Assembly: GCA_022969815.1 (NCBI GenBank) | Contig: GCA_022969815.1_4535.1 | Origin: Escherichia coli | GTDB lineage: Bacteria > Pseudomonadota > Gammaproteobacteria > Enterobacterales > Enterobacteriaceae | DNA: 64,000 bases | Strand: one strand, 5' to 3' | Shown here: positions 38,174 through 48,142 of the stretch, piece by piece | Layout of the letters: every line of letters starts with the position of its first letter | How positions within the stretch are numbered: position 1 is the first letter of the stretch | The notes under the pieces: generated by a model | Databases searched by the model: none | Told to the model about the DNA's origin: nothing | Seen by the model: the letters and a program-made list of their open reading frames with translations, nothing else | Made by a program: the position numbers and the translations under genes

Positions 38174-38857
38174 ATGGAAAATGTTAAAATTGGGGTTGGC
38201 GTTATCACTGTAGGCGTTCGTCCACTTAAAGATTACATGGTTGCACCTGGTGTAGACTTCAAAGTGTTTCACGATCCCGATCGTAAAGGTGTAGCTTATG
38301 CTCGCAACCAATTGATGAAACAGTTCTACGATGAAGGTTTTGACTACTGGTTTATTTTCGACGATGATTGCTATCCAGTTAAACGTGGTTGGGAAGAATA
38401 CTTCGTTAACCAGGCTGTCGAGAATGGTTGGGACTTCTTCGGTATGCCAGAATACTTCAAAGATACTGTGATCGGTTGTTCTGGAGAAGTAGTCTTCTGG
38501 GAATTGGCTATGTGTCAGTTTGCAATGTATTCTCGTGCAATTGTTGAGACGATGGGTTATTTCCGCCCGTATACGCACGGATATGGTTTTGAAGATGCGG
38601 AATGGACTAACCGTCTGAAAGCTTCAGGTTTGAATAAAGGACTCCAGGGCGTACCTTGCCCGATGCGCATTATGGCGTACATTCACCCCGACGATGTTTT
38701 CGGAGACAACCCTTTACCTTTTGCGAATCTGACGAAAGAAGAGAAAGAAGCAGCAATCGGGATCAACTGGGAAGAATACAAACTATCTTTGGAGGATATC
38801 AATAATGGCAAAACATACATCTCTTTTGAAGAGGCTGAAGGATATGGCGTTAAATAA
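38174..38857 (+). CDS. GT-A (family 2-like) glycosyltransferase, 227 aa
   Basis: GVGVITVGVRP...KGVAYARNQLM...YWFIFDDDCYP (ARN motif and DxD). Confidence 0.65.
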   Translation: MENVKIGVGVITVGVRPLKDYMVAPGVDFKVFHDPDRKGVAYARNQLMKQFYDEGFDYWFIFDDDCYPVKRGWEEYFVNQAVENGWDFFGMPEYFKDTVIGCSGEVVFWELAMCQFAMYSRAIVETMGYFRPYTHGYGFEDAEWTNRLKASGLNKGLQGVPCPMRIMAYIHPDDVFGDNPLPFANLTKEEKEAAIGINWEEYKLSLEDINNGKTYISFEEAEGYGVK

Positions 38858-39791
38858 GAAACCAACCCTACTGTGCGATAACAAATTCAACAGTGGTTGT
38901 GATTATCATCGCATTGTTATGCCATTTTCTCACATAGAGATCAAGCCACGTACTGATGTACTGGTCTTTAACCGCATCTTCTCGAAAGGTTCTGATGAAG
39001 TAGCCAAACTTAAGCGTCAAGGTGTTAAGATTGTTGTAGATTTGGATGATTTCTATCAGTTGAATCCAGAGCACTACCTTGCGCATCTGTACGCGCCAAA
39101 CACCCGCACCATTGTGGAAATGGTTAAATTGGCAGATGCGGTCATCGTGACAACAGAATACCTGGCATATAAAATTCGTCACTTAAACTCTAATGTTGTT
39201 GTGATCCGAAATGCTCTACCGTTCGATGATGACCAGTTCACTCTCTCGAATGATCGTACTTCGGGTACGCCTATTATCTGGGCTGGAGGTGCAAGTCATG
39301 AGCCTGATTTACGTTTGCTTTCAAATACTTTTGATGATAGTCTGTTGTCTATCGCAGGGTATGAAGCGAGCAGCACAGTGACAGGGCAAGAGTGGGTTAA
39401 GATTCGCCGTAGTTTGCCTAATGCGCAGTATAAACCTGCTGTACATTCTTTGGATGAGTATATGTCGGCATACGATGGTCACGCTATGGCGGTAGCCCCG
39501 TTAGTAGATAATGACTTCAACCATTGCAAGAGCAACCTGAAAGTATTAGAAGCTGGTGCTAAAGGCATTCCAATCGTTTGTTCTAAGGTATTACCTTACT
39601 ACAACCCGATCGATGCCCGTGCAGTAACCTTCGCAGATAGCAAGGCAGAGTGGCACTATGAAGTTGTAAAACTACTTCGTAATCCAAACTACCGTGAAGA
39701 TCGTGGACTGTTCTTGGCTGAACATGTTCGTACTCATTACAACTTGAAGGATGCAAACGAATTGCGTCGTCAAGTGATCGAAAGTCTATAG
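38844..39791 (+). CDS. GT-B-type glycosyltransferase, 315 aa (paralog 1)
   Basis: C-terminal K.NLK.LEAGAKG.P.VCS nucleotide-sugar-binding-like motif; ATG 38844 chosen by length match to the paralog (alternative ATG 38805). Confidence 0.6.
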   Translation: MALNKKPTLLCDNKFNSGCDYHRIVMPFSHIEIKPRTDVLVFNRIFSKGSDEVAKLKRQGVKIVVDLDDFYQLNPEHYLAHLYAPNTRTIVEMVKLADAVIVTTEYLAYKIRHLNSNVVVIRNALPFDDDQFTLSNDRTSGTPIIWAGGASHEPDLRLLSNTFDDSLLSIAGYEASSTVTGQEWVKIRRSLPNAQYKPAVHSLDEYMSAYDGHAMAVAPLVDNDFNHCKSNLKVLEAGAKGIPIVCSKVLPYYNPIDARAVTFADSKAEWHYEVVKLLRNPNYREDRGLFLAEHVRTHYNLKDANELRRQVIESL

Positions 39792-39797
39792 GTGTCT

Positions 39798-40742
39798 ATG
39801 GGACAAATTATTCTTGACAATCGTGCTGGAAAAGAATATAGTGTCTGCGATTATCACCGAGTAATGCTGCCTTACACAAGGCAGTTCTCGGCTCAACCGT
39901 CACAGAACGTATATGTCTTTAACGGTGTCCCTACAAAAGGGAAACAAGGTTTCATAGCCCTTAAGAGCATGGGTTTTAAGATGGTAATGGATTTGGATGA
40001 CTCCTTAAACATTCCTCAAGGACACATGCTGGAAGACATTTTTGATGCAGGTATTCGAGAAGACTTGCAATGGTTTCTTGAACGTAGCGATCTTGTGACG
40101 ACAACAACACCTGCTCTCCAGGTGGAACTGTCCCAGTACAATCCTAACGTACATATTATTCCAAATGGCTTACCGTTTGATGAGGATCAGTTCACGTTAA
40201 CTCGTGATCGCTATTCCAAATCGCCGATAGTATGGGCTGGAAGTGAAACACATAAACAAGATTTAGCTCTACTGCCGAATTTTGGAAGGGATTTAACAAT
40301 CTGCGGATTCCGTAGAGATAGTGAAGTCTTAAGTAGTAAGCAATGGACTGACATACGTGAAAAAGTGGCTCCAAGCTGCAATTATGAGGCTGTTAGACCA
40401 TATGAGAGCTATATGGAATCTTATGATGGTCATCAAATAATGCTTGCGCCTTTGACCGATAACCTGTTTAATAACGCCAAAAGTAACCTTAAGATTCTGG
40501 AGGCTGGTGCCAAGGGTCTGCCTTTGGTCTGTTCTCCTCGTGAGAATTACTTCACAGAAGAGTTTAAGGATTTACTGTTCTTTGCAGAATCAAGAAGTGA
40601 ATGGGAAGATATTGTTAATTACCTGATCCAAGAACCTGATGTGGGGATCGAGAAGGGATTGGCTTTAGCTAAATATGTTCGTAAGCATTATCACATTGAT
40701 GTGCTGAATGAACGCCGTAGATTATTATTTGAGGAGCTATAA
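39798..40742 (+). CDS. GT-B-type glycosyltransferase, 314 aa (paralog 2)
   Basis: about 35-40% identical by eye to 38844..39791 (CDYHR, PNGLPFDEDQFTL, LEAGAKGLPLVCS); ATG 39798 (track start is GTG 39792). Confidence 0.6.
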   Translation: MGQIILDNRAGKEYSVCDYHRVMLPYTRQFSAQPSQNVYVFNGVPTKGKQGFIALKSMGFKMVMDLDDSLNIPQGHMLEDIFDAGIREDLQWFLERSDLVTTTTPALQVELSQYNPNVHIIPNGLPFDEDQFTLTRDRYSKSPIVWAGSETHKQDLALLPNFGRDLTICGFRRDSEVLSSKQWTDIREKVAPSCNYEAVRPYESYMESYDGHQIMLAPLTDNLFNNAKSNLKILEAGAKGLPLVCSPRENYFTEEFKDLLFFAESRSEWEDIVNYLIQEPDVGIEKGLALAKYVRKHYHIDVLNERRRLLFEEL

Positions 40743-41032: not shown

Positions 41033-42814
41033 GTGACACACATTATAACGAAATATGGATTTGATGTTGATCTTAGCAGGGAAGGGCACACTGGCTGTCC
41101 ACGCTGCATGAAAAATGGCAAGGATCGCTCTCGTAATAACCTGATGGTTTATGGATTGGATTCTAACGGTGAGCATAAAGGAGCTAAATGCTTTGCGTGT
41201 GAGTACACAATCCCCAGCGTTGAATGGTTAAGAGAGAATGGTGAAGTTTTAGAAGAAGAGGAGGATATTGTGGGTTCGGAATTTAATAAAGAGATTCATC
41301 GTAAGATTGTAGAAGAAACAGGTACTAACCCACGAGGCTACCGTGGGATCAAGGAAGAATATTCTAAATTCTACGGTGTTCGTTACCAGTATAAACAAGA
41401 AGAATCTAATCTTGTTGTGGAACATACTTTGTATCCAACAACTATCGGTAAAGAACTGGTAGGTTTTAAGCGTCGTATCCATCCTAAAGACTTCTCCAAG
41501 CCCATTGGTCAAGTAGGTAAAGATGTAGATTTGTTTGGACAATTTCGTTTCCTTGAGCGTTCCCATACCGTAATCATTACTGGTGGTGAACATGATGCCT
41601 TGGCAGCATATCAAATGTTGGCAGAAGGTCTTGACAGGAAATATGAATTACCAGCAGTAGTTAGTGGCACAACTGGTGAAACCAGTATGTACAAACAGGT
41701 ACAGGCACAGTACCCTTTCTTTGAGAAGTTCAAGAAGATCATCGTCTGCATGGATAATGATAAAGCAGGTAAGGAAGCTTTTGAGAACATTGTAAAAGTG
41801 TTGCCTCGTAATAAAGTTTACCTGATGAAGATGGAACTGAAAGATGCTAATGAATACCTGTTGCAAGATAAAGCAAAAGACTTTGTGAAGGCTTATTGGG
41901 GTGCAAAACTCTATACCCCAGCAGGTGTTTATGCTTCAAACGAACTTTATGAAGCTGCAATGGATTGCTTGGATGCACAAGTGATCACTCTCCCTCCGTT
42001 CATGCGTACTGCTGCGAACATGTTGGGTGGTGGTCTGGTAGAAGAAGAGATCACAGTTATTCTGGCTAAAACGAGTATCGGTAAGACGTTGATGGTGAAT
42101 GAGATCACCAAACACATTATCGTAGCTCATCCAGAACATGTGTTGGGTATTCTGTCCCTGGAAGCAACGTATAAGAAATACTCACGTAACCTTCTTTCTT
42201 CGTTCCTGCATATTCCTTTGCATCGTAAGACTAAGGAAGAAAAGGCTGCGATCCTGGAAGAGAACAAGGAAGCTATTAATAACTTCTACGTTCGTGAAGA
42301 TGGTTCTCCTCGCTTCTTTGTCTGTGATGACCGTGGTGCAGACATTGATTCAATCAAGGAGAAGGTGCTGGAGATGATTATCTACTTTGGCATTACCATC
42401 TTGGTAATTGACCCATACTCGGATCTGTTGTCGGGGATGAGTGTTCAGGAACAAGAAGAATTGGCAACGTGGTTGAAGCGCATCATGAAAGAATATGGCA
42501 TTACGATCATCGTGATCTCTCACGTTAAGAAAGCTGCGAACAATGGTAATGAGCACTTAACCGAAGATGATGCAATGGGTAGTAGTTTCTTGGCAAAAGG
42601 TGCAGGTATTACACTGGCACTGGAACGAGATAAAGCCGCAGAAGACCCTGTTGAGCGCAACACAACTCATTGTTATATCTTGAAAAACCGTGAGTTCTCA
42701 GAAACTGGTCCTGCTGGACAATTCTATTACGATATTAAAACTGCCACACTGCACGACAAAGCACAGTATTTTGCTAATCCTGATAATGCAGGTGGTGCAG
42801 AAGGCGCATATTGA
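41033..42814 (+). CDS. bifunctional primase-helicase (T7 gp4-like), 593 aa
   Basis: N-terminal zinc ribbon CPRC...CFAC, TOPRIM CMDNDKAGKE, helicase Walker A AKTSIGKT; GTG start with AGGAGAGG SD. Confidence 0.85.
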   Translation: MTHIITKYGFDVDLSREGHTGCPRCMKNGKDRSRNNLMVYGLDSNGEHKGAKCFACEYTIPSVEWLRENGEVLEEEEDIVGSEFNKEIHRKIVEETGTNPRGYRGIKEEYSKFYGVRYQYKQEESNLVVEHTLYPTTIGKELVGFKRRIHPKDFSKPIGQVGKDVDLFGQFRFLERSHTVIITGGEHDALAAYQMLAEGLDRKYELPAVVSGTTGETSMYKQVQAQYPFFEKFKKIIVCMDNDKAGKEAFENIVKVLPRNKVYLMKMELKDANEYLLQDKAKDFVKAYWGAKLYTPAGVYASNELYEAAMDCLDAQVITLPPFMRTAANMLGGGLVEEEITVILAKTSIGKTLMVNEITKHIIVAHPEHVLGILSLEATYKKYSRNLLSSFLHIPLHRKTKEEKAAILEENKEAINNFYVREDGSPRFFVCDDRGADIDSIKEKVLEMIIYFGITILVIDPYSDLLSGMSVQEQEELATWLKRIMKEYGITIIVISHVKKAANNGNEHLTEDDAMGSSFLAKGAGITLALERDKAAEDPVERNTTHCYILKNREFSETGPAGQFYYDIKTATLHDKAQYFANPDNAGGAEGAY

Positions 42815-42897: not shown

Positions 42898-45495
42898 ATG
42901 AGTAAGTTTACATGGGATATTGAAGCAACCGCATTACTGAACAATGACACAATTGATTACCTGGCAAGCCCTTATCGATTGAAAGACACTTTTGGTATGC
43001 ATTGTATTTGTCTGGAAAACCACGAAACAGGAGAGATCATTGCTTTTCACGATGGTCCTAAGTACATTTTCGATGGTCGTCCTTATGAAGAGTCTGACGG
43101 TAAGTACACTTATGTACTGAAGGAGTATGTGGCACAAGAATACACACACTTTCCTCTGGCAGATTTTCCAGATTTTGTCAACCATACAGGCAAGTTCGCA
43201 GATAAGCCTGAATACCTCGTAGAAATGGCTGTAGCCCATAACGGCATCAACTATGACCACTTGGCAGTTAAGCTTTACTACGGGCTGAATTACAGCGTTA
43301 AATACAACACTTGGGGTGATTCAAAAGTTAAGATTATTGATACCTTAATCCTTAGTAAAGTATTGAACCCTGATCGCAAGGTTGATGGTAAACCTGGACA
43401 CAACTTGAATGCCCTTTCTAAAAAAGCTGGCGGGGATGTTAAGATCGATTTCCGTAAAGAGATTCCAGAAGGAGAGCGATTCAAGACGTTCGCCGCAGAT
43501 ATGTTGTACTACTGTATCTACGACAACAAGGCAACTACAGCAGTATATTATTACCTCATGGAAGAATGGGGTGATTATAAGAAGTGGCAAGAGCCGTTCG
43601 ACTTGGAGCAACGTATTGCGGATATCATCACCCGTCAAGAACACCGTGGCTTTAAGTTCAACATGCAACAAGCTGAACAGAACCTGGAATTCTTGGACAA
43701 AGAAATGGAACGTCTACGTTTGTTGGTAGAGCCTATTCTTCCACCTAAACCAGCGACTAAAGGTTATCTGAAAGATTTTATTCCACCGAAACTTCAAATC
43801 AAGAAGAACGGTGAGCCAACAAATCATATCATCAGGTTTGCGGAGAAACATGGCGGTAGCCTTGAAGAACGTGAAGGTGATTGGTGGCTGCTTGTTTTAG
43901 ATAAAGAGTTTAAGTTACCGATCTCAAGTGAAGAACCTATTTGTGAACCTACCATTCCGTCTACACTGAATGATACGACACACATTAAAAACTGGCTTGT
44001 AGGTTTGGGTTGGGTTCCGTCTGAATATAAAGACAAAGACTTGACGCTTAAATCTGGTTCGAAGATCAAGAAAGATCCTGACGACTTAGAGAAAGGTATT
44101 CTGTCTTATGTCAAACAAACTCTGGAAAGCAACTTCTGTAATGATCGTTGCGAACACTTACAAGCTGATGCTGAAACATTAGAGCTTAGAATCCGTGAAC
44201 GTCTGGCTAAAGGGAAAGGTCGTGGTCTTAAAGTGCTGACCAACCCATGCTTCACGAAGGGGCAGGAGAAAGAGATTTGTCCTAATCTTGAAGCACTGGG
44301 CGAGAAGTTCCCGTATGCCACGCAGATTGTGCAGTACCTGACGTACAAACATCGTCGAAACTCTATTTTGGGCGGTGGTGCAGATTGGGAAGACGATGAG
44401 GAAGATCAAGAATACGATAAAGGCTTCTTAGCAGCAGTTCGTGCCGATGGTCGTATATCGACTCCAGCGGCTACGTGTGACGCTGCAACATCTCGTATGA
44501 AGCATCGCTCTGTTGCGAACGTTCCTCGCGTTACATCGTTGTTTGGGTACGAAATGCGTAACTTGTTTGGGGTAGAAACACCGCGTTACTTCCAGATCGG
44601 TTATGACTTTGACTCCTTGGAAGCAAAGATTGAGTCGCATTATTGTTGGCGCTACGAACCGGAGCCTCATGAATATTGTAACGCTCTCTTGTTGGAGAAG
44701 CCTAACGATGTTCATACCATGATGGCAAGACGTATCACAGAAACTATTGGACGTAAGTTTGAACGTAGTCCAGCTAAATCTGTTAAGTACGGGATTACAT
44801 ATGGAGCACAGGCAGACAAGGTTGCTAAGACAATTGGTAGTGATAAGTACACAGGACAACTGGTGTTTGATGCATTCTGGGAAGCGGCTTTCCCGTTAGC
44901 ACAACTGAAAGAGAAGTTGAATGCTTTCTGGGTTAACACTGGCAAGCAGTATGTTCTCGGTATCGATGGACGTAAAGTCCCAACACGATCTGCACATGCA
45001 ATCTTAAACTCACTGTTCCAAAGTGGCGGGGTTATCTGTGCTAAACGTGCAATGGTGATTTATGACGATATGATCGAAGAGGAAGGTTTAGCTGTTGACT
45101 TCTTCGTTGACGACTGGAAGAATAAAGACTTCGTTCAGCAAATGATCGCTTACCACGATGAAGCGCAGCTTGAAGTATCTCGTAACTTGGTGGAATTTAA
45201 ATGGTTCTCCAAAGAATCTTTAGGTTGGGTTAAAGTGGATGACGAGAAAGAGCAGAAGAAAATAGATGCGGAATGTCTTGCAAAAGCTAACGAATGGAAG
45301 CATAATAAAGAGAAAGAGACAGGGCAGATTTGGGCTAACGTTCACGAATCACCTAAAGGTGGTTGGTTTACCGCTTACAGTCGTGCCGGAGAACTTGCTT
45401 CTCTTGCTGTTATCAAAGCTGGGGAATATTACAAACTAAATGTTCAGCTTACTGCTGGATACGATGTTGGTAGTTCCTGGGCGAGCTGTCACTGA
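42898..45495 (+). CDS. family A DNA polymerase with 3'-5' exonuclease domain, 865 aa
   Basis: Exo I DIEAT; motif A DFDSLEAKI; motif B RRITETIGRKFERSPAKSVKYGITYG; motif C HDE. Confidence 0.9.
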   Translation: MSKFTWDIEATALLNNDTIDYLASPYRLKDTFGMHCICLENHETGEIIAFHDGPKYIFDGRPYEESDGKYTYVLKEYVAQEYTHFPLADFPDFVNHTGKFADKPEYLVEMAVAHNGINYDHLAVKLYYGLNYSVKYNTWGDSKVKIIDTLILSKVLNPDRKVDGKPGHNLNALSKKAGGDVKIDFRKEIPEGERFKTFAADMLYYCIYDNKATTAVYYYLMEEWGDYKKWQEPFDLEQRIADIITRQEHRGFKFNMQQAEQNLEFLDKEMERLRLLVEPILPPKPATKGYLKDFIPPKLQIKKNGEPTNHIIRFAEKHGGSLEEREGDWWLLVLDKEFKLPISSEEPICEPTIPSTLNDTTHIKNWLVGLGWVPSEYKDKDLTLKSGSKIKKDPDDLEKGILSYVKQTLESNFCNDRCEHLQADAETLELRIRERLAKGKGRGLKVLTNPCFTKGQEKEICPNLEALGEKFPYATQIVQYLTYKHRRNSILGGGADWEDDEEDQEYDKGFLAAVRADGRISTPAATCDAATSRMKHRSVANVPRVTSLFGYEMRNLFGVETPRYFQIGYDFDSLEAKIESHYCWRYEPEPHEYCNALLLEKPNDVHTMMARRITETIGRKFERSPAKSVKYGITYGAQADKVAKTIGSDKYTGQLVFDAFWEAAFPLAQLKEKLNAFWVNTGKQYVLGIDGRKVPTRSAHAILNSLFQSGGVICAKRAMVIYDDMIEEEGLAVDFFVDDWKNKDFVQQMIAYHDEAQLEVSRNLVEFKWFSKESLGWVKVDDEKEQKKIDAECLAKANEWKHNKEKETGQIWANVHESPKGGWFTAYSRAGELASLAVIKAGEYYKLNVQLTAGYDVGSSWASCH

Positions 45496-45904: not shown

Positions 45905-46123
45905 ATGCGTAAATTAGTGAGTTTTAATGTTTCAATTCTTGTTGATGAACAACATGAAGATGTTATTAAAGGTCTTGCAAATAAGCTTGCAGGTGGAATG
46001 ACGGAAGCTGAAGTGTGGGAAGAATGTGCTCGACTTTATGAGGAAGGTGTTATTGAGGTCTTGGGGGATGAGATTAATATGGACGATGTTGTAAAAGTAA
46101 CTGTGGAGCGTATCAATGACTAA
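45905..46123 (+). CDS. hypothetical protein, 72 aa
   Basis: GGAGAAG SD. Confidence 0.5.
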   Translation: MRKLVSFNVSILVDEQHEDVIKGLANKLAGGMTEAEVWEECARLYEEGVIEVLGDEINMDDVVKVTVERIND

Positions 46124-46712
46124 ATCAAGCCAGATTACCCTTGCCTGTGAGATCCTTACTGTTCTTAAGATTGCTGATCCTCGTTCAATCCTGGCAGGTG
46201 GCGCAGTCCGTGACTGGCGAATGTTAAATGCTGCTGGGCGAGATCTTGACTTCTACACCTCTCTTCCTGCATATAACGGGGAAGCAGAGATTAAAGAATT
46301 TATCACCACATCTTTACGTGGGACAAATATTAAGCTTTTAGGTAACAAAGATTTACCTGAAAACTATTCGTCAATGGTTGGTTTGAAACATGTGTTTGAA
46401 TTTGAACGTGATGGTCAATTATGTAACCTCATGATCATGGAAAGGGGCTACCTACCACAAGTAGCACATAACTTTGATACATCTGTTTGCCAAGCTTCTT
46501 TCGACGGAGACACCTACTGGTATAGTGATAACTTTGAAGTTACACTCGCTACTGGTATTTGTTTCTTGCACAAAGATGCAAAGGAGGATGCCAAACATGT
46601 TCGTAAACTTGCTGATCGCTTCCCAACTATGCGTTTTGTTCGTGAAGTACATGTTCGTCCCGACCCGCAAGCGGATAATTTTGAAGATTTTCAGGACGAC
46701 ATTCCTTGGTAA
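46116..46712 (+). CDS. minimal nucleotidyltransferase (Pol-beta superfamily head domain) with SSB-tip-like C-terminus, 198 aa
   Basis: GGAVRDWRMLNAAGRDLDF (GG.VRD...DxD, as in CCA-adding/poly(A) polymerase heads); C-terminus EDFQDDIPW. Confidence 0.55.
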   Translation: MTKSSQITLACEILTVLKIADPRSILAGGAVRDWRMLNAAGRDLDFYTSLPAYNGEAEIKEFITTSLRGTNIKLLGNKDLPENYSSMVGLKHVFEFERDGQLCNLMIMERGYLPQVAHNFDTSVCQASFDGDTYWYSDNFEVTLATGICFLHKDAKEDAKHVRKLADRFPTMRFVREVHVRPDPQADNFEDFQDDIPW

Positions 46713-46719
46713 ATAAAGC

Positions 46720-46749
46720 TTGACTTTCACTAATCTTTTATGATAGGAT
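46720..46749 (+). promoter_or_regulatory. candidate promoter
   Basis: -35 TTGACT 46720-46725, 18-nt spacer, -10 TAGGAT 46744-46749. Confidence 0.4.
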
Positions 46750-46757
46750 GACAATCA

Positions 46758-47153
46758 ATGACTGAACGTTCAAAAATAAGTGTTGAAACTGAATACAGCG
46801 AATACCTGAACAGTTTGATACTTGTTGAAAAAGATGTAATAGGTCTGGATAACTCGTTCTTCTTTCAAATCCTGATAGGTAAGGGTGGACACCGAAAGTT
46901 ATTCTCTCGTGTGGAAGACTCTGACCTATCCGAAACTGAAATAACGGTTAAAGAATTTATTAGCTTGCAGGATAACATCCGAAAAGTTATTGACACAGCC
47001 GGAAACGCTGTTACAATAAAACTCGATATGCATTCTGTGCAATTTGTTCATTTTCCGAATGGAGAAATTGGAGTTGGAATAGGTAAAGGTAAGTACCTTT
47101 TAGAAAAAGAAAACGCAGAGCTTCTTCGTGAGTTCTGTGCAAAAACAATGTGA
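46758..47153 (+). CDS. hypothetical protein, 131 aa
   Basis: ATG 46758. Confidence 0.55.
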   Translation: MTERSKISVETEYSEYLNSLILVEKDVIGLDNSFFFQILIGKGGHRKLFSRVEDSDLSETEITVKEFISLQDNIRKVIDTAGNAVTIKLDMHSVQFVHFPNGEIGVGIGKGKYLLEKENAELLREFCAKTM

Positions 47154-47170
47154 ATATAGAGGAGATAATA

Positions 47171-48079
47171 ATGTCCGTAATTAATACTGAAACTGATCGT
47201 AAAGGCAAAACTGTAACTTATGCAACTGGTGTTGTAGACTACGTTAAACTGGATAAATTTGCAGAGCCTAAAACCTTCCAATGGGATGGTAAGTCGATTG
47301 TTTCTACTCACCGTGCTTCACTCGTTCTGAAAGAAAAGGGTGCCAAGCAGGATGCAAAAGGGACGTGGATTAGCCTGGGTGATATTGAACTGAAAGAAGG
47401 TTACGAAAATCTTCAGGTTAAAGATGGTGATACTTGGATCACTATCGAAAAAGGTGTTGAAGTTAGTATTGATATCGACAAAGTTGATACCAAAGGTGAC
47501 AAAACTTACTACAATACTAAGAAATCTCGTATCACTGTTCTTTCTACTGAAGGCGTTCAAAAGAAAGAAAATAAATCAGGTGGCACTGGCGTTTCAGGTA
47601 ACACTGGAAACAAACAATCCTTCAAAAAACGTGATACCGTAGGTCTTGAGACTGGTCACGCAGTTAACGGAGCTTTGGAACTGATTCGTAATGGTGTGAA
47701 AGGTGAAGCGTTTGATATTGCAGGTGTGGTTCAGTCTGCTACTGTGACTCTGAAAGCTGAAGTGGCTAAAGAGCGTGGCGTAGATATCAGTGATTATGAT
47801 CTGGGGGCTTCTGTTGGTCACGCTGTTCTGAATGCCTGTAAAGATCATTCCGGTAAGTCTGTTTCAGTAGAAGATTTGATTGAAACTGCTCGTGAAGTTC
47901 TGGCACTTTCTGACAAGGTAGCTAATGCCATTCGTGGTGCAGCAGAACAACCTAAGAAAGAAGAAGCCAAGAAAGAGCCTAAGAAGGAAGAACCTAAGCA
48001 GGAGCCTAAGCAAGAACCTGCTCCTCAACAAAATCAAGAAGAACCTCCAATGGACTTCGACGATGATATTCCTTTTTGA
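47171..48079 (+). CDS. putative ssDNA-binding protein ending in the host SSB C-terminal tip, 302 aa
   Basis: last residues EPPMDFDDDIPF, preceded by a Pro/Glu/Lys-rich linker; ATG 47171 with GAGGAG SD. Confidence 0.6.
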   Translation: MSVINTETDRKGKTVTYATGVVDYVKLDKFAEPKTFQWDGKSIVSTHRASLVLKEKGAKQDAKGTWISLGDIELKEGYENLQVKDGDTWITIEKGVEVSIDIDKVDTKGDKTYYNTKKSRITVLSTEGVQKKENKSGGTGVSGNTGNKQSFKKRDTVGLETGHAVNGALELIRNGVKGEAFDIAGVVQSATVTLKAEVAKERGVDISDYDLGASVGHAVLNACKDHSGKSVSVEDLIETAREVLALSDKVANAIRGAAEQPKKEEAKKEPKKEEPKQEPKQEPAPQQNQEEPPMDFDDDIPF

Positions 48080-48110: not shown

Positions 48111-48142
48111 GAAAAGGGAACCTTTGCGGGTTCCCTTTTTTA
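48111..48142. terminator. bidirectional intrinsic terminator at the convergence point
   Basis: AAAA-GGGAACC-TTTGCG-GGTTCCC-TTTTTT. Confidence 0.8.

Follow-up and report, generated by a model that had tools for sequence, protein, structure and literature searches.

What does it mean that two genes lying close together in one phage, one for a nucleotidyltransferase (NTase) and the other for an SSB-like protein, both end in the peptide by which Escherichia coli SSB meets its partners? The question is raised by a stretch of 64,000 nucleotides (nt) of E. coli DNA (GenBank assembly GCA_022969815.1, contig GCA_022969815.1_4535.1; the whole of this stretch is referred to here as the window), in which the genes at 46116-46712 and 47171-48079 encode proteins of 198 and 302 amino acids (aa) respectively. 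The C-terminal tip of SSB is the hub peptide of bacterial genome maintenance: its terminal phenylalanine and carboxylate enter a pocket that is flanked by basic residues, and more than 12 partner proteins are engaged in this way. The best explanation, to which we give a probability of roughly 55%, is that both phage tips are SSB-type docking peptides, one carried by a protein that would coat single-stranded DNA (ssDNA) and the other by an NTase that resembles the anti-defence protein Gad2, and that they would reach host SSB partners, the phage replisome, or both. The initial annotation of the locus had proposed that the two tips recruit or hijack the host proteins that bind SSB. As a whole that interpretation is partly supported.

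The two tips and where else they occur

The two genes and their tips are as follows.
46116-46712, plus strand: 198-aa minimal NTase, with a Gad2-like NTase core, a variable linker and a DDIPW tip
46695-46709, plus strand: the NTase tip DDIPW, followed by the stop codon TAA at 46710-46712
47171-48079, plus strand: 302-aa SSB-like protein (PHROG 4477), with a predicted OB-like domain, a helical domain, a disordered linker and a tip
48041-48076, plus strand: the SSB-like tip EPPMDFDDDIPF, the same 12 residues with which E. coli SSB ends; the stop codon occupies 48077-48079

Translation of the longer gene gives a C-terminus of ...QNQEEPPMDFDDDIPF immediately before the stop codon, and the SSB of E. 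coli K-12 (NC_000913.3) ends ...SNEPPMDFDDDIPF; the last 12 residues are the same in the two proteins at 12 of 12 positions, which confirms the host tip that had been read from the sequence. The NTase ends ...ADNFEDFQDDIPW, that is ...EDFQDDIPW and stop. This had been called a close variant of the SSB tip, and translation bears that out: it fits the class, with a terminal aromatic residue preceded inward by proline, an aliphatic residue and at least two acidic residues, all placed after a variable linker that carries indels. The start codons that had been chosen for the two genes are also supported, since their homologues begin MSVINTE... and MTKSSQ.... The window contains 473 stop-to-stop open reading frames (ORFs) with a length of 50 aa or more, and an ending of an acidic residue, any residue, Ile, Pro and then Phe or Trp is confined to these two; in the related phage phiWec179, whose complete genome (154 kb) contains 1713 ORFs of 40 aa or more, it is again confined to the same two genes. 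At this protein composition, a DDIP(F/W) ending is expected by chance at a rate of 6.4e-7 per protein, or about 2e-4 per genome of 300 genes. The tail of the 302-aa protein is not a recent capture of host DNA, since the last 48 nt of its gene match K-12 ssb at 32 of 48 positions; recent capture from a host or plasmid ssb gene was considered and rejected, as only 39-52 nt are similar.

Both families conserve the tip far more strongly than the residues that lead up to it, with a column identity of 0.96 for the tip versus 0.56 over the 20 preceding columns in the NTase family, and of 0.93 versus 0.36 for the linker in the SSB-like family. The ten clusters of NTase homologues (58-99% identity) all keep D-D-I-P-W, save for one DSFPW, and the roughly 20 residues before the tip vary in both sequence and length through indels; a syntenic homologue that is only 37% identical (P0134) still ends NFPDDIPW. 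At least 130 homologues of the SSB-like protein were found, and all 120 of those listed have a Pro-Phe tip, in most cases DFDDDIPF and in nearly all (P)(M/V)DFDDDIPF; about 100 of the 120 terminate at the tip and about 20 continue for 15 more residues. The terminal residue is invariably Phe in the SSB-like family and invariably Trp in the NTase family, which indicates that the two tips are not interchangeable copies of one another.

Neither tip is confined to this type of phage. In the viral contigs of IMG/VR, D-D-I-P-W-stop gave at least 120 matches, of which 113 listed ones end ORFs of at least 60 aa, and the scrambled control D-I-D-P-W-stop gave 18 matches in all of IMG/VR, a single one of which ends an ORF of that length. 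A search of 100,044 bacterial and archaeal genomes for the same ending returned at least 121 matches; 33 listed ones end ORFs of at least 60 aa, and several of these resemble viral families. DDIPW-COOH is a virus-enriched variant of the tip and in cellular genomes is mostly a chance match, and the idea that the Trp tip copies the SSB of some host clade is unsupported, most matches in these 100,044 species genomes being attributable to chance. The ending D-D-D-I-P-F-stop was likewise matched at least 121 times in IMG/VR viral contigs, with 115 listed ones at the ends of ORFs of at least 60 aa; an E. coli-like SSB OB domain is present in only 43 of these 115, and an SF2 helicase and many small families are among the rest. 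The 113 listed DDIPW ORF ends fall into at least 24 unrelated clusters, usually after low-complexity linkers. According to Pfam, these clusters include canonical SSB (PF00436), gp32-like SSB, Toprim+DnaB primase/helicase, SF2 helicase, AAA_5 ATPase, Pam3_Gp34-like proteins and DUF6511. An unrelated phage group also has a Trp-tipped gene adjoining a Phe-tipped one, in four contigs (L079, 2737-5187; L085, 11000-13451; L107; L129): DDIPW is the ending of a Pam3_Gp34-like protein of about 275 aa, and its primase-like neighbour of about 520 aa ends E(E/D)(E/D)IPF. The adjacency of the two kinds of tip is therefore not unique to the phage of the window.

The two proteins and their replication module

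Within the two genes, the following parts were delimited.
47171-47545, plus strand: N-terminal beta-rich, OB-like domain of the 302-aa protein (residues 1-125, AlphaFold2 model)
47639-47938, plus strand: four-helix domain of the 302-aa protein (residues 157-256; pLDDT about 90), with the motifs GxETGHAxNGA and DLGASVGHAxLNA
47945-48040, plus strand: disordered K/E/P/Q-rich linker of the 302-aa protein (residues 259-290; pLDDT <50; column identity 0.36)
46197-46250, plus strand: catalytic motif GGAVRDW...RDLD of the NTase (G28, G29 ... D43, any residue, D45)
46641-46694, plus strand: variable linker of the NTase (residues 176-193; the 20 columns before the tip average 0.56 in identity, and indels occur)

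Some GenBank records annotate homologues of the 302-aa protein as SSB. Judged by its sequence, the protein falls outside the canonical bacterial SSBs (PF00436/TIGR00621): PF00436 does not match it at E-values up to 0.1, the NCBIfam SSB models match it only at residues 225-302, that is in the tail, a profile search of the PDB again matched the tail only, and phmmer with the N-terminal 115 aa of E. coli SSB as the query had no hit in either the window or phiWec179. No annotated relative of the protein emerged from Foldseek searches of viral and PDB libraries. The AlphaFold2 model (mean pLDDT 78; residues 132-150 disordered) contains an OB-like domain, a helical domain, a linker and the tip, and on this modelled architecture the protein is read as the putative ssDNA-binding protein of the phage, belonging to an uncharacterised OB-plus-helical family. 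The four-helix domain, for which no informative structural match was obtained, is the part in common with homologues of about 400 aa in phages such as Cronobacter phage CR3 and Serratia phage ChuuTotoro. Its two motifs are conserved and similar to one another, with nearly invariant Gly and His residues, and the domain may be an oligomerisation or partner-binding module. The tail profile also matches Dictyostelium myosin-2 motor-domain constructs in the PDB (2xel, 2jhr and others) C-terminally, at residues 757-776 or 769-788, which may reflect an engineered tag rather than biology.

The SSB-like homologues that run past the tip (about 20 of the 120 listed) do so with a conserved 15-aa extension, ...DDDIPF-APIGLQYGRNFLHCF or ...DDDIPF-APVTLPFPRHAIHAI, which would bury the normally free carboxylate of the Phe residue. 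Carriers include P0016, P0024, P0027, P0042, P0054, P0055, P0061, P0062, P0071 and P0074, together with L007 (7053-8000), L273 (1078-1584) and L274 (1027-1584). The tip plus its extension is found in 211 phage records (tblastn, coverage of at least 80%), and the canonical SSBs of lambdoid phage mEp235 and of a Vibrio phage are also extended. In L009 (5905-6399) and L010 (5914-6261), a gene for an HNH/zinc-ribbon endonuclease-like protein overlaps the extended 3' end of the SSB-like gene, which suggests homing-endonuclease traffic at this site. That the extension is a by-product of HNH insertion was rejected as a general explanation, since mEp235 and the Vibrio phage are extended with a DnaQ-like 3'-5' exonuclease gene downstream instead; that phages with an extended SSB lack the NTase tip was rejected because L009 has both.

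The initial annotation had called the 198-aa protein a nucleotidyltransferase, an identity that is upheld by a match to PHROG 10174 ('nucleotidyltransferase') at 1e-46, by its invariant GG...DxD motif and by homology to the NTase domain of Gad2. The family comprises 431 representative clusters; among the 150 listed, most members are about 190-220 aa long, and those whose context was checked lie in phage genomes or in replication-gene neighbourhoods. Residues G28, G29, W34, D43 and D45 do not vary among 101 members of the family, and the invariance of the catalytic residues argues that NTase activity is under selection. Comparison of the family profile using hhalign, with Gad2 sequences taken from the supplement of Yirmiya et al. 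(10.1101/2023.05.01.538930), gave 92.4% (E 5e-7, 124 columns) against one verified Gad2 and 97.5% (E 7.4e-12, 124 columns) against a nine-sequence Gad2 alignment, compared with 63.6% (E 6.7e-5, 50 columns) for E. coli PcnB and 25.6% (E 7.4e-4, 40 columns) for E. coli Cca. On these profile comparisons the core of the enzyme is homologous to the Gad2 NTase domain. The alignment stops at about residue 143 of the 394 residues of Gad2, and at 198 aa the phage protein does not have the full-length Gad2 architecture of about 400 aa with a C-terminal region. Faint precomputed matches to PF26128 (Gad2) exist for the NTase, and Pfam hmmscan did not list that family. Sequence searches of Pfam, NCBIfam, PADLOC and the PDB returned only sub-threshold matches to motif A: the PF01743 match (E 0.13) scores 13.1 bits, where 23 is the cut-off, and covers motif A only, and the motif stretch aligns to motif A of class II CCA/poly(A) polymerases and, weakly, of CCA enzymes in the PDB. 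Relatives are annotated in GenBank as 'putative tRNA nucleotidyl transferase / poly(A) polymerase', an annotation that is probably wrong. The AlphaFold2 model of the NTase, made from an 11-sequence alignment, has a pLDDT of 45 and is unusable. In the published list of Gad2 homologues (table 10 of 10.1101/2023.05.01.538930), two full-length Paenibacillus proteins end ...ETLKPIF and ...KAVPIF, and the same table lists short Gad2 homologues of 214-278 aa.

The NTase is an accessory gene. The versions found in Justusliebigvirus and in Klebsiella phage 05F01 are without the tip, and the allele of the window, which is 99% identical to those of phiWec188/190, is only 63% identical (protein) to that of phiWec179 (L005, 37057-37662), despite flanking DNA that is 93% identical to phiWec179; the gene is mosaic. 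The window and phiWec179 alleles differ most in the linker, and both end D(D/E)DIPW. In L010 (3770-4582), a 270-aa SIR2-domain protein takes the place of the NTase and the neighbouring 131-aa and SSB-like genes are kept, which makes the slot look like a variable accessory position.

The region shows 82-99% identity to E. coli myophages of the Phapecoctavirus type (subfamily Stephanstirmvirinae), phiWec179/181/186/188/190 and phAPEC8 among them, and on sequence grounds the window is that of a Phapecoctavirus-like E. coli myophage. Around the two tipped genes lie the following features.
41033-42814, plus strand: T7-like primase/helicase, from the annotations of relatives and the ORF list
42898-45495, plus strand: family A DNA polymerase (DNA_pol_A match, PHROG 17)
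46758-47153, plus strand: 131-aa conserved protein (PHROG 16560, function unknown), between the NTase slot and the SSB-like gene
48112-48139, no strand assigned: terminator-like stem-loop with an 11-bp stem, listed on the minus strand, with a T-rich run after it; a consensus match only

The order of primase/helicase, polymerase, NTase, 131-aa protein and SSB-like gene is kept across Stephanstirmvirinae, and three small ORFs lie between the polymerase and NTase genes in the window. Polymerase, NTase, a protein of about 130 aa and the SSB-like protein follow one another in this order in Justusliebigvirus PaulScherrer (Bas60), in Klebsiella phage 05F01 and in the metagenomic contigs L009 and L011. 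The 131-aa gene keeps its position in PaulScherrer, 05F01, L009, L010 and L011, and a PDB sequence search with its product gave no match. The stem-loop separates the SSB-like gene from a convergent tail-protein gene; scans for promoters and terminators did not rise above shuffled expectation. At its C-terminus the primase/helicase of the window has a short tail that is rich in Gly and Ala and finishes in Tyr (...NAGGAEGAY), and it has neither an SSB-type tip nor an acidic tail like that of T7 gp4. The polymerase is longer in several relatives, at 1099-1189 aa (L007, 2061-5375; L011, 2285-5584; L009, 1-2740), and that of PaulScherrer is annotated as containing an intein; the copy in the window is 865 aa long and intein-free. 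Elsewhere in phiWec179 (L003, 42284-45559) a complete dTDP-rhamnose pathway is encoded (rffG, glucose-1-phosphate thymidylyltransferase, rfbC and rfbD), alongside cobB, TerC and a Ser/Thr phosphatase, and in the window two glycosyltransferase-like ORFs (38805-40742) lie directly upstream of the primase/helicase.

Proposed docking by the tips and the competing explanations

A peptide of the SSB-tip class has an acidic run, Ile-Pro and an aromatic residue with a free carboxylate, and it closes a disordered linker. The 302-aa protein would be the phage's own ssDNA-coating protein, serving a T7-like replisome built on the family A polymerase and the primase/helicase, and its host-identical tip would let it engage the readers of E. 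coli SSB; the identity over 12 residues argues that host SSB partners are engaged. The Trp tip would tether the NTase to the same class of pocket, on host SSB partners and/or on replisome proteins of the phage, and tethering would concentrate nucleotidyl transfer at SSB-coated ssDNA and at nearby 3' ends. Because the Trp tip is virus-enriched, its reader may differ from that of the Phe tip or be differently tuned, being either a subset of the host partners or the phage replisome. For the enzyme, a role in counter-defence or in modifying DNA ends is the most attractive guess in view of the relationship to Gad2 and of the variable slot, and such a role would be likelier than tRNA maturation. What the analysis shows is the sequences, their conservation, the domain architecture, the homologies and the wide occurrence of the tip on unrelated phage proteins; the binding of ssDNA, all of the binding partners, the substrate of the NTase and its biological role are inferred.

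A bolder reading, which is offered tentatively and which we think rather unlikely, is that DDIPW-COOH is a re-tuned, virus-specific SSB tip that has been grafted as a plug-in tag, wiring unrelated proteins into the host SSB hub or into a parallel, private phage hub, and that in the window it delivers a Gad2-like counter-defence enzyme to SSB-coated DNA. The proteins tagged in this way would be SSBs of at least three folds, primase-helicases, helicases, ATPases and the NTase of the window. If phages do routinely add the tip or its Trp variant to their proteins, this would be a general and simple route for bringing foreign activities into replication forks, and the phage proteins that work at ssDNA would be predictable from a search for one peptide. 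The Gad2-related NTase would then bear an address label for its site of action, and the plug-in tag would provide the first mechanistic handle on Gad2-type nucleotidyltransferases. The phage 'SSB', for its part, belongs to a fold family that is uncharacterised and that has a conserved helical domain in addition.

Docking might instead be wholly internal to the phage, as in T7, with the tails binding the phage polymerase or primase/helicase and the NTase acting as a replisome accessory that has no dealings with host partners. The replisome is of the T7 type (family A polymerase, gp4-like primase/helicase and SSB-like protein), and in T7 gp4 and gp2.5 have acidic C-terminal tails that compete for one basic patch on the polymerase; moreover the Trp tip, being virus-enriched and mostly a chance match in cellular genomes, is no copy of a host tail, and it is also found on phage primase-helicases and helicases. 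The 12-residue identity of the Phe tip to the host, however, extends to the PPM that lies upstream of the minimal DDDIPF and is hard to account for without a host reader, the host-like SSB tip persists across the homologues in enterobacterial phages, and small phages that lack a polymerase of their own may also have such SSB tips. Purely internal docking is thus possible but doubtful.

It is improbable that the NTase tail serves chiefly as a decoy or competitor, occupying the pockets of host nucleases and helicases such as ExoI or RecQ so that these stay away from phage ssDNA, or blinding defences that sense SSB, with catalysis being secondary. Several defence systems have been reported to sense phage SSB (PMC12904381), the NTase gene sits in a variable accessory slot, and Trp, as a larger hydrophobic anchor than Phe, could compete with the host tail. 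The catalytic residues are nevertheless invariant throughout the family, whether or not its members are tipped, and a decoy has no need of a 175-aa enzyme attached to it.

In SSBs, as described for T7 gp2.5 and E. coli SSB, the acidic tail competes with ssDNA for binding in the OB cleft, and the tail might by the same token fold back, mimicking ssDNA, onto the nucleic-acid-binding surface of its own protein and so gate that protein's activity in cis rather than recruit partners. The tail is acidic and is carried on a flexible linker, as this would require, but charge mimicry has no need of an invariant Ile-Pro-Trp-COOH, and the occurrence of the exact motif in at least 24 unrelated families points to a common external reader; regulation in cis is accordingly given a slim chance.

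Poorest of all is the prospect that the NTase is a tRNA CCA-adding enzyme or poly(A) polymerase with an incidental tail, as the GenBank annotation of its relatives, the weak motif-A matches to PF01743 and PDB CCA enzymes, and the ten tRNA genes of this phage type would have it: the similarity is limited to motif A and lies below the Pfam threshold, the protein is half the size of the smallest matches, the Cca profile match is 25.6% versus 97.5% for Gad2, and a role in tRNA metabolism is unlikely given that 9 of the 10 phage tRNA genes already encode CCA and that the NTase gene belongs to the replication module, a long way from the tRNA cluster.

Comparison with known systems

Phage and plasmid SSBs with host-like tips are already known, as are shared tails in T7. 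Four points appear to be new: a Gad2-like NTase that carries the tip, the uncharacterised OB-plus-helical family of phage 'SSB', the Trp-ended tip as a widespread, virus-enriched tag on many unrelated proteins, and the probable error in the annotation as a tRNA enzyme. None of the four was found described in the open-access literature (subscription journals being outside the scope of the search), which held nothing relevant on phage mimics of the SSB tip or on 'DDIPW'.

Set beside the SSBs of bacteria, plasmids and phages, the 302-aa protein is alike in its disordered linker, its acidic Ile-Pro-Phe-COOH tip and its location in a replication module, and it may also be alike in its N-terminal domain, which looks OB-like in the model. 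It differs from bacterial SSBs in having an extra conserved four-helix domain and in matching SSB models only in the tail. The likeness to T7 is that two replication proteins of one phage bear similar acidic, aromatic-ended tails, in a replisome of the same type. The motif here is nevertheless the bacterial SSB tip, D-D-I-P-F/W, rather than the tail sequence of T7, and the second carrier is an NTase rather than the helicase, which in the window ends ...GGAEGAY.

Class II CCA-adding enzymes and poly(A) polymerase I (the PF01743 head) share the GGxVRD...DxD motif A with the NTase; only 40-50 columns align, however, and the protein of the window is without their neck, body and tail regions. Gad2 (Gabija anti-defence 2; PF26128) is an anti-Gabija protein of about 400 aa with a predicted NTase domain, and its mechanism is still unknown according to a 2026 review. 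It resembles the NTase of the window over a core of about 124 columns, including AGG...D.D and FD.(S/T)(V/I)C, and both are phage accessory genes. The difference lies in what follows the core, in that Gad2 continues into a large C-terminal region, whereas the NTase of the window breaks off at about 175 aa, where a linker and an SSB-type tip follow.

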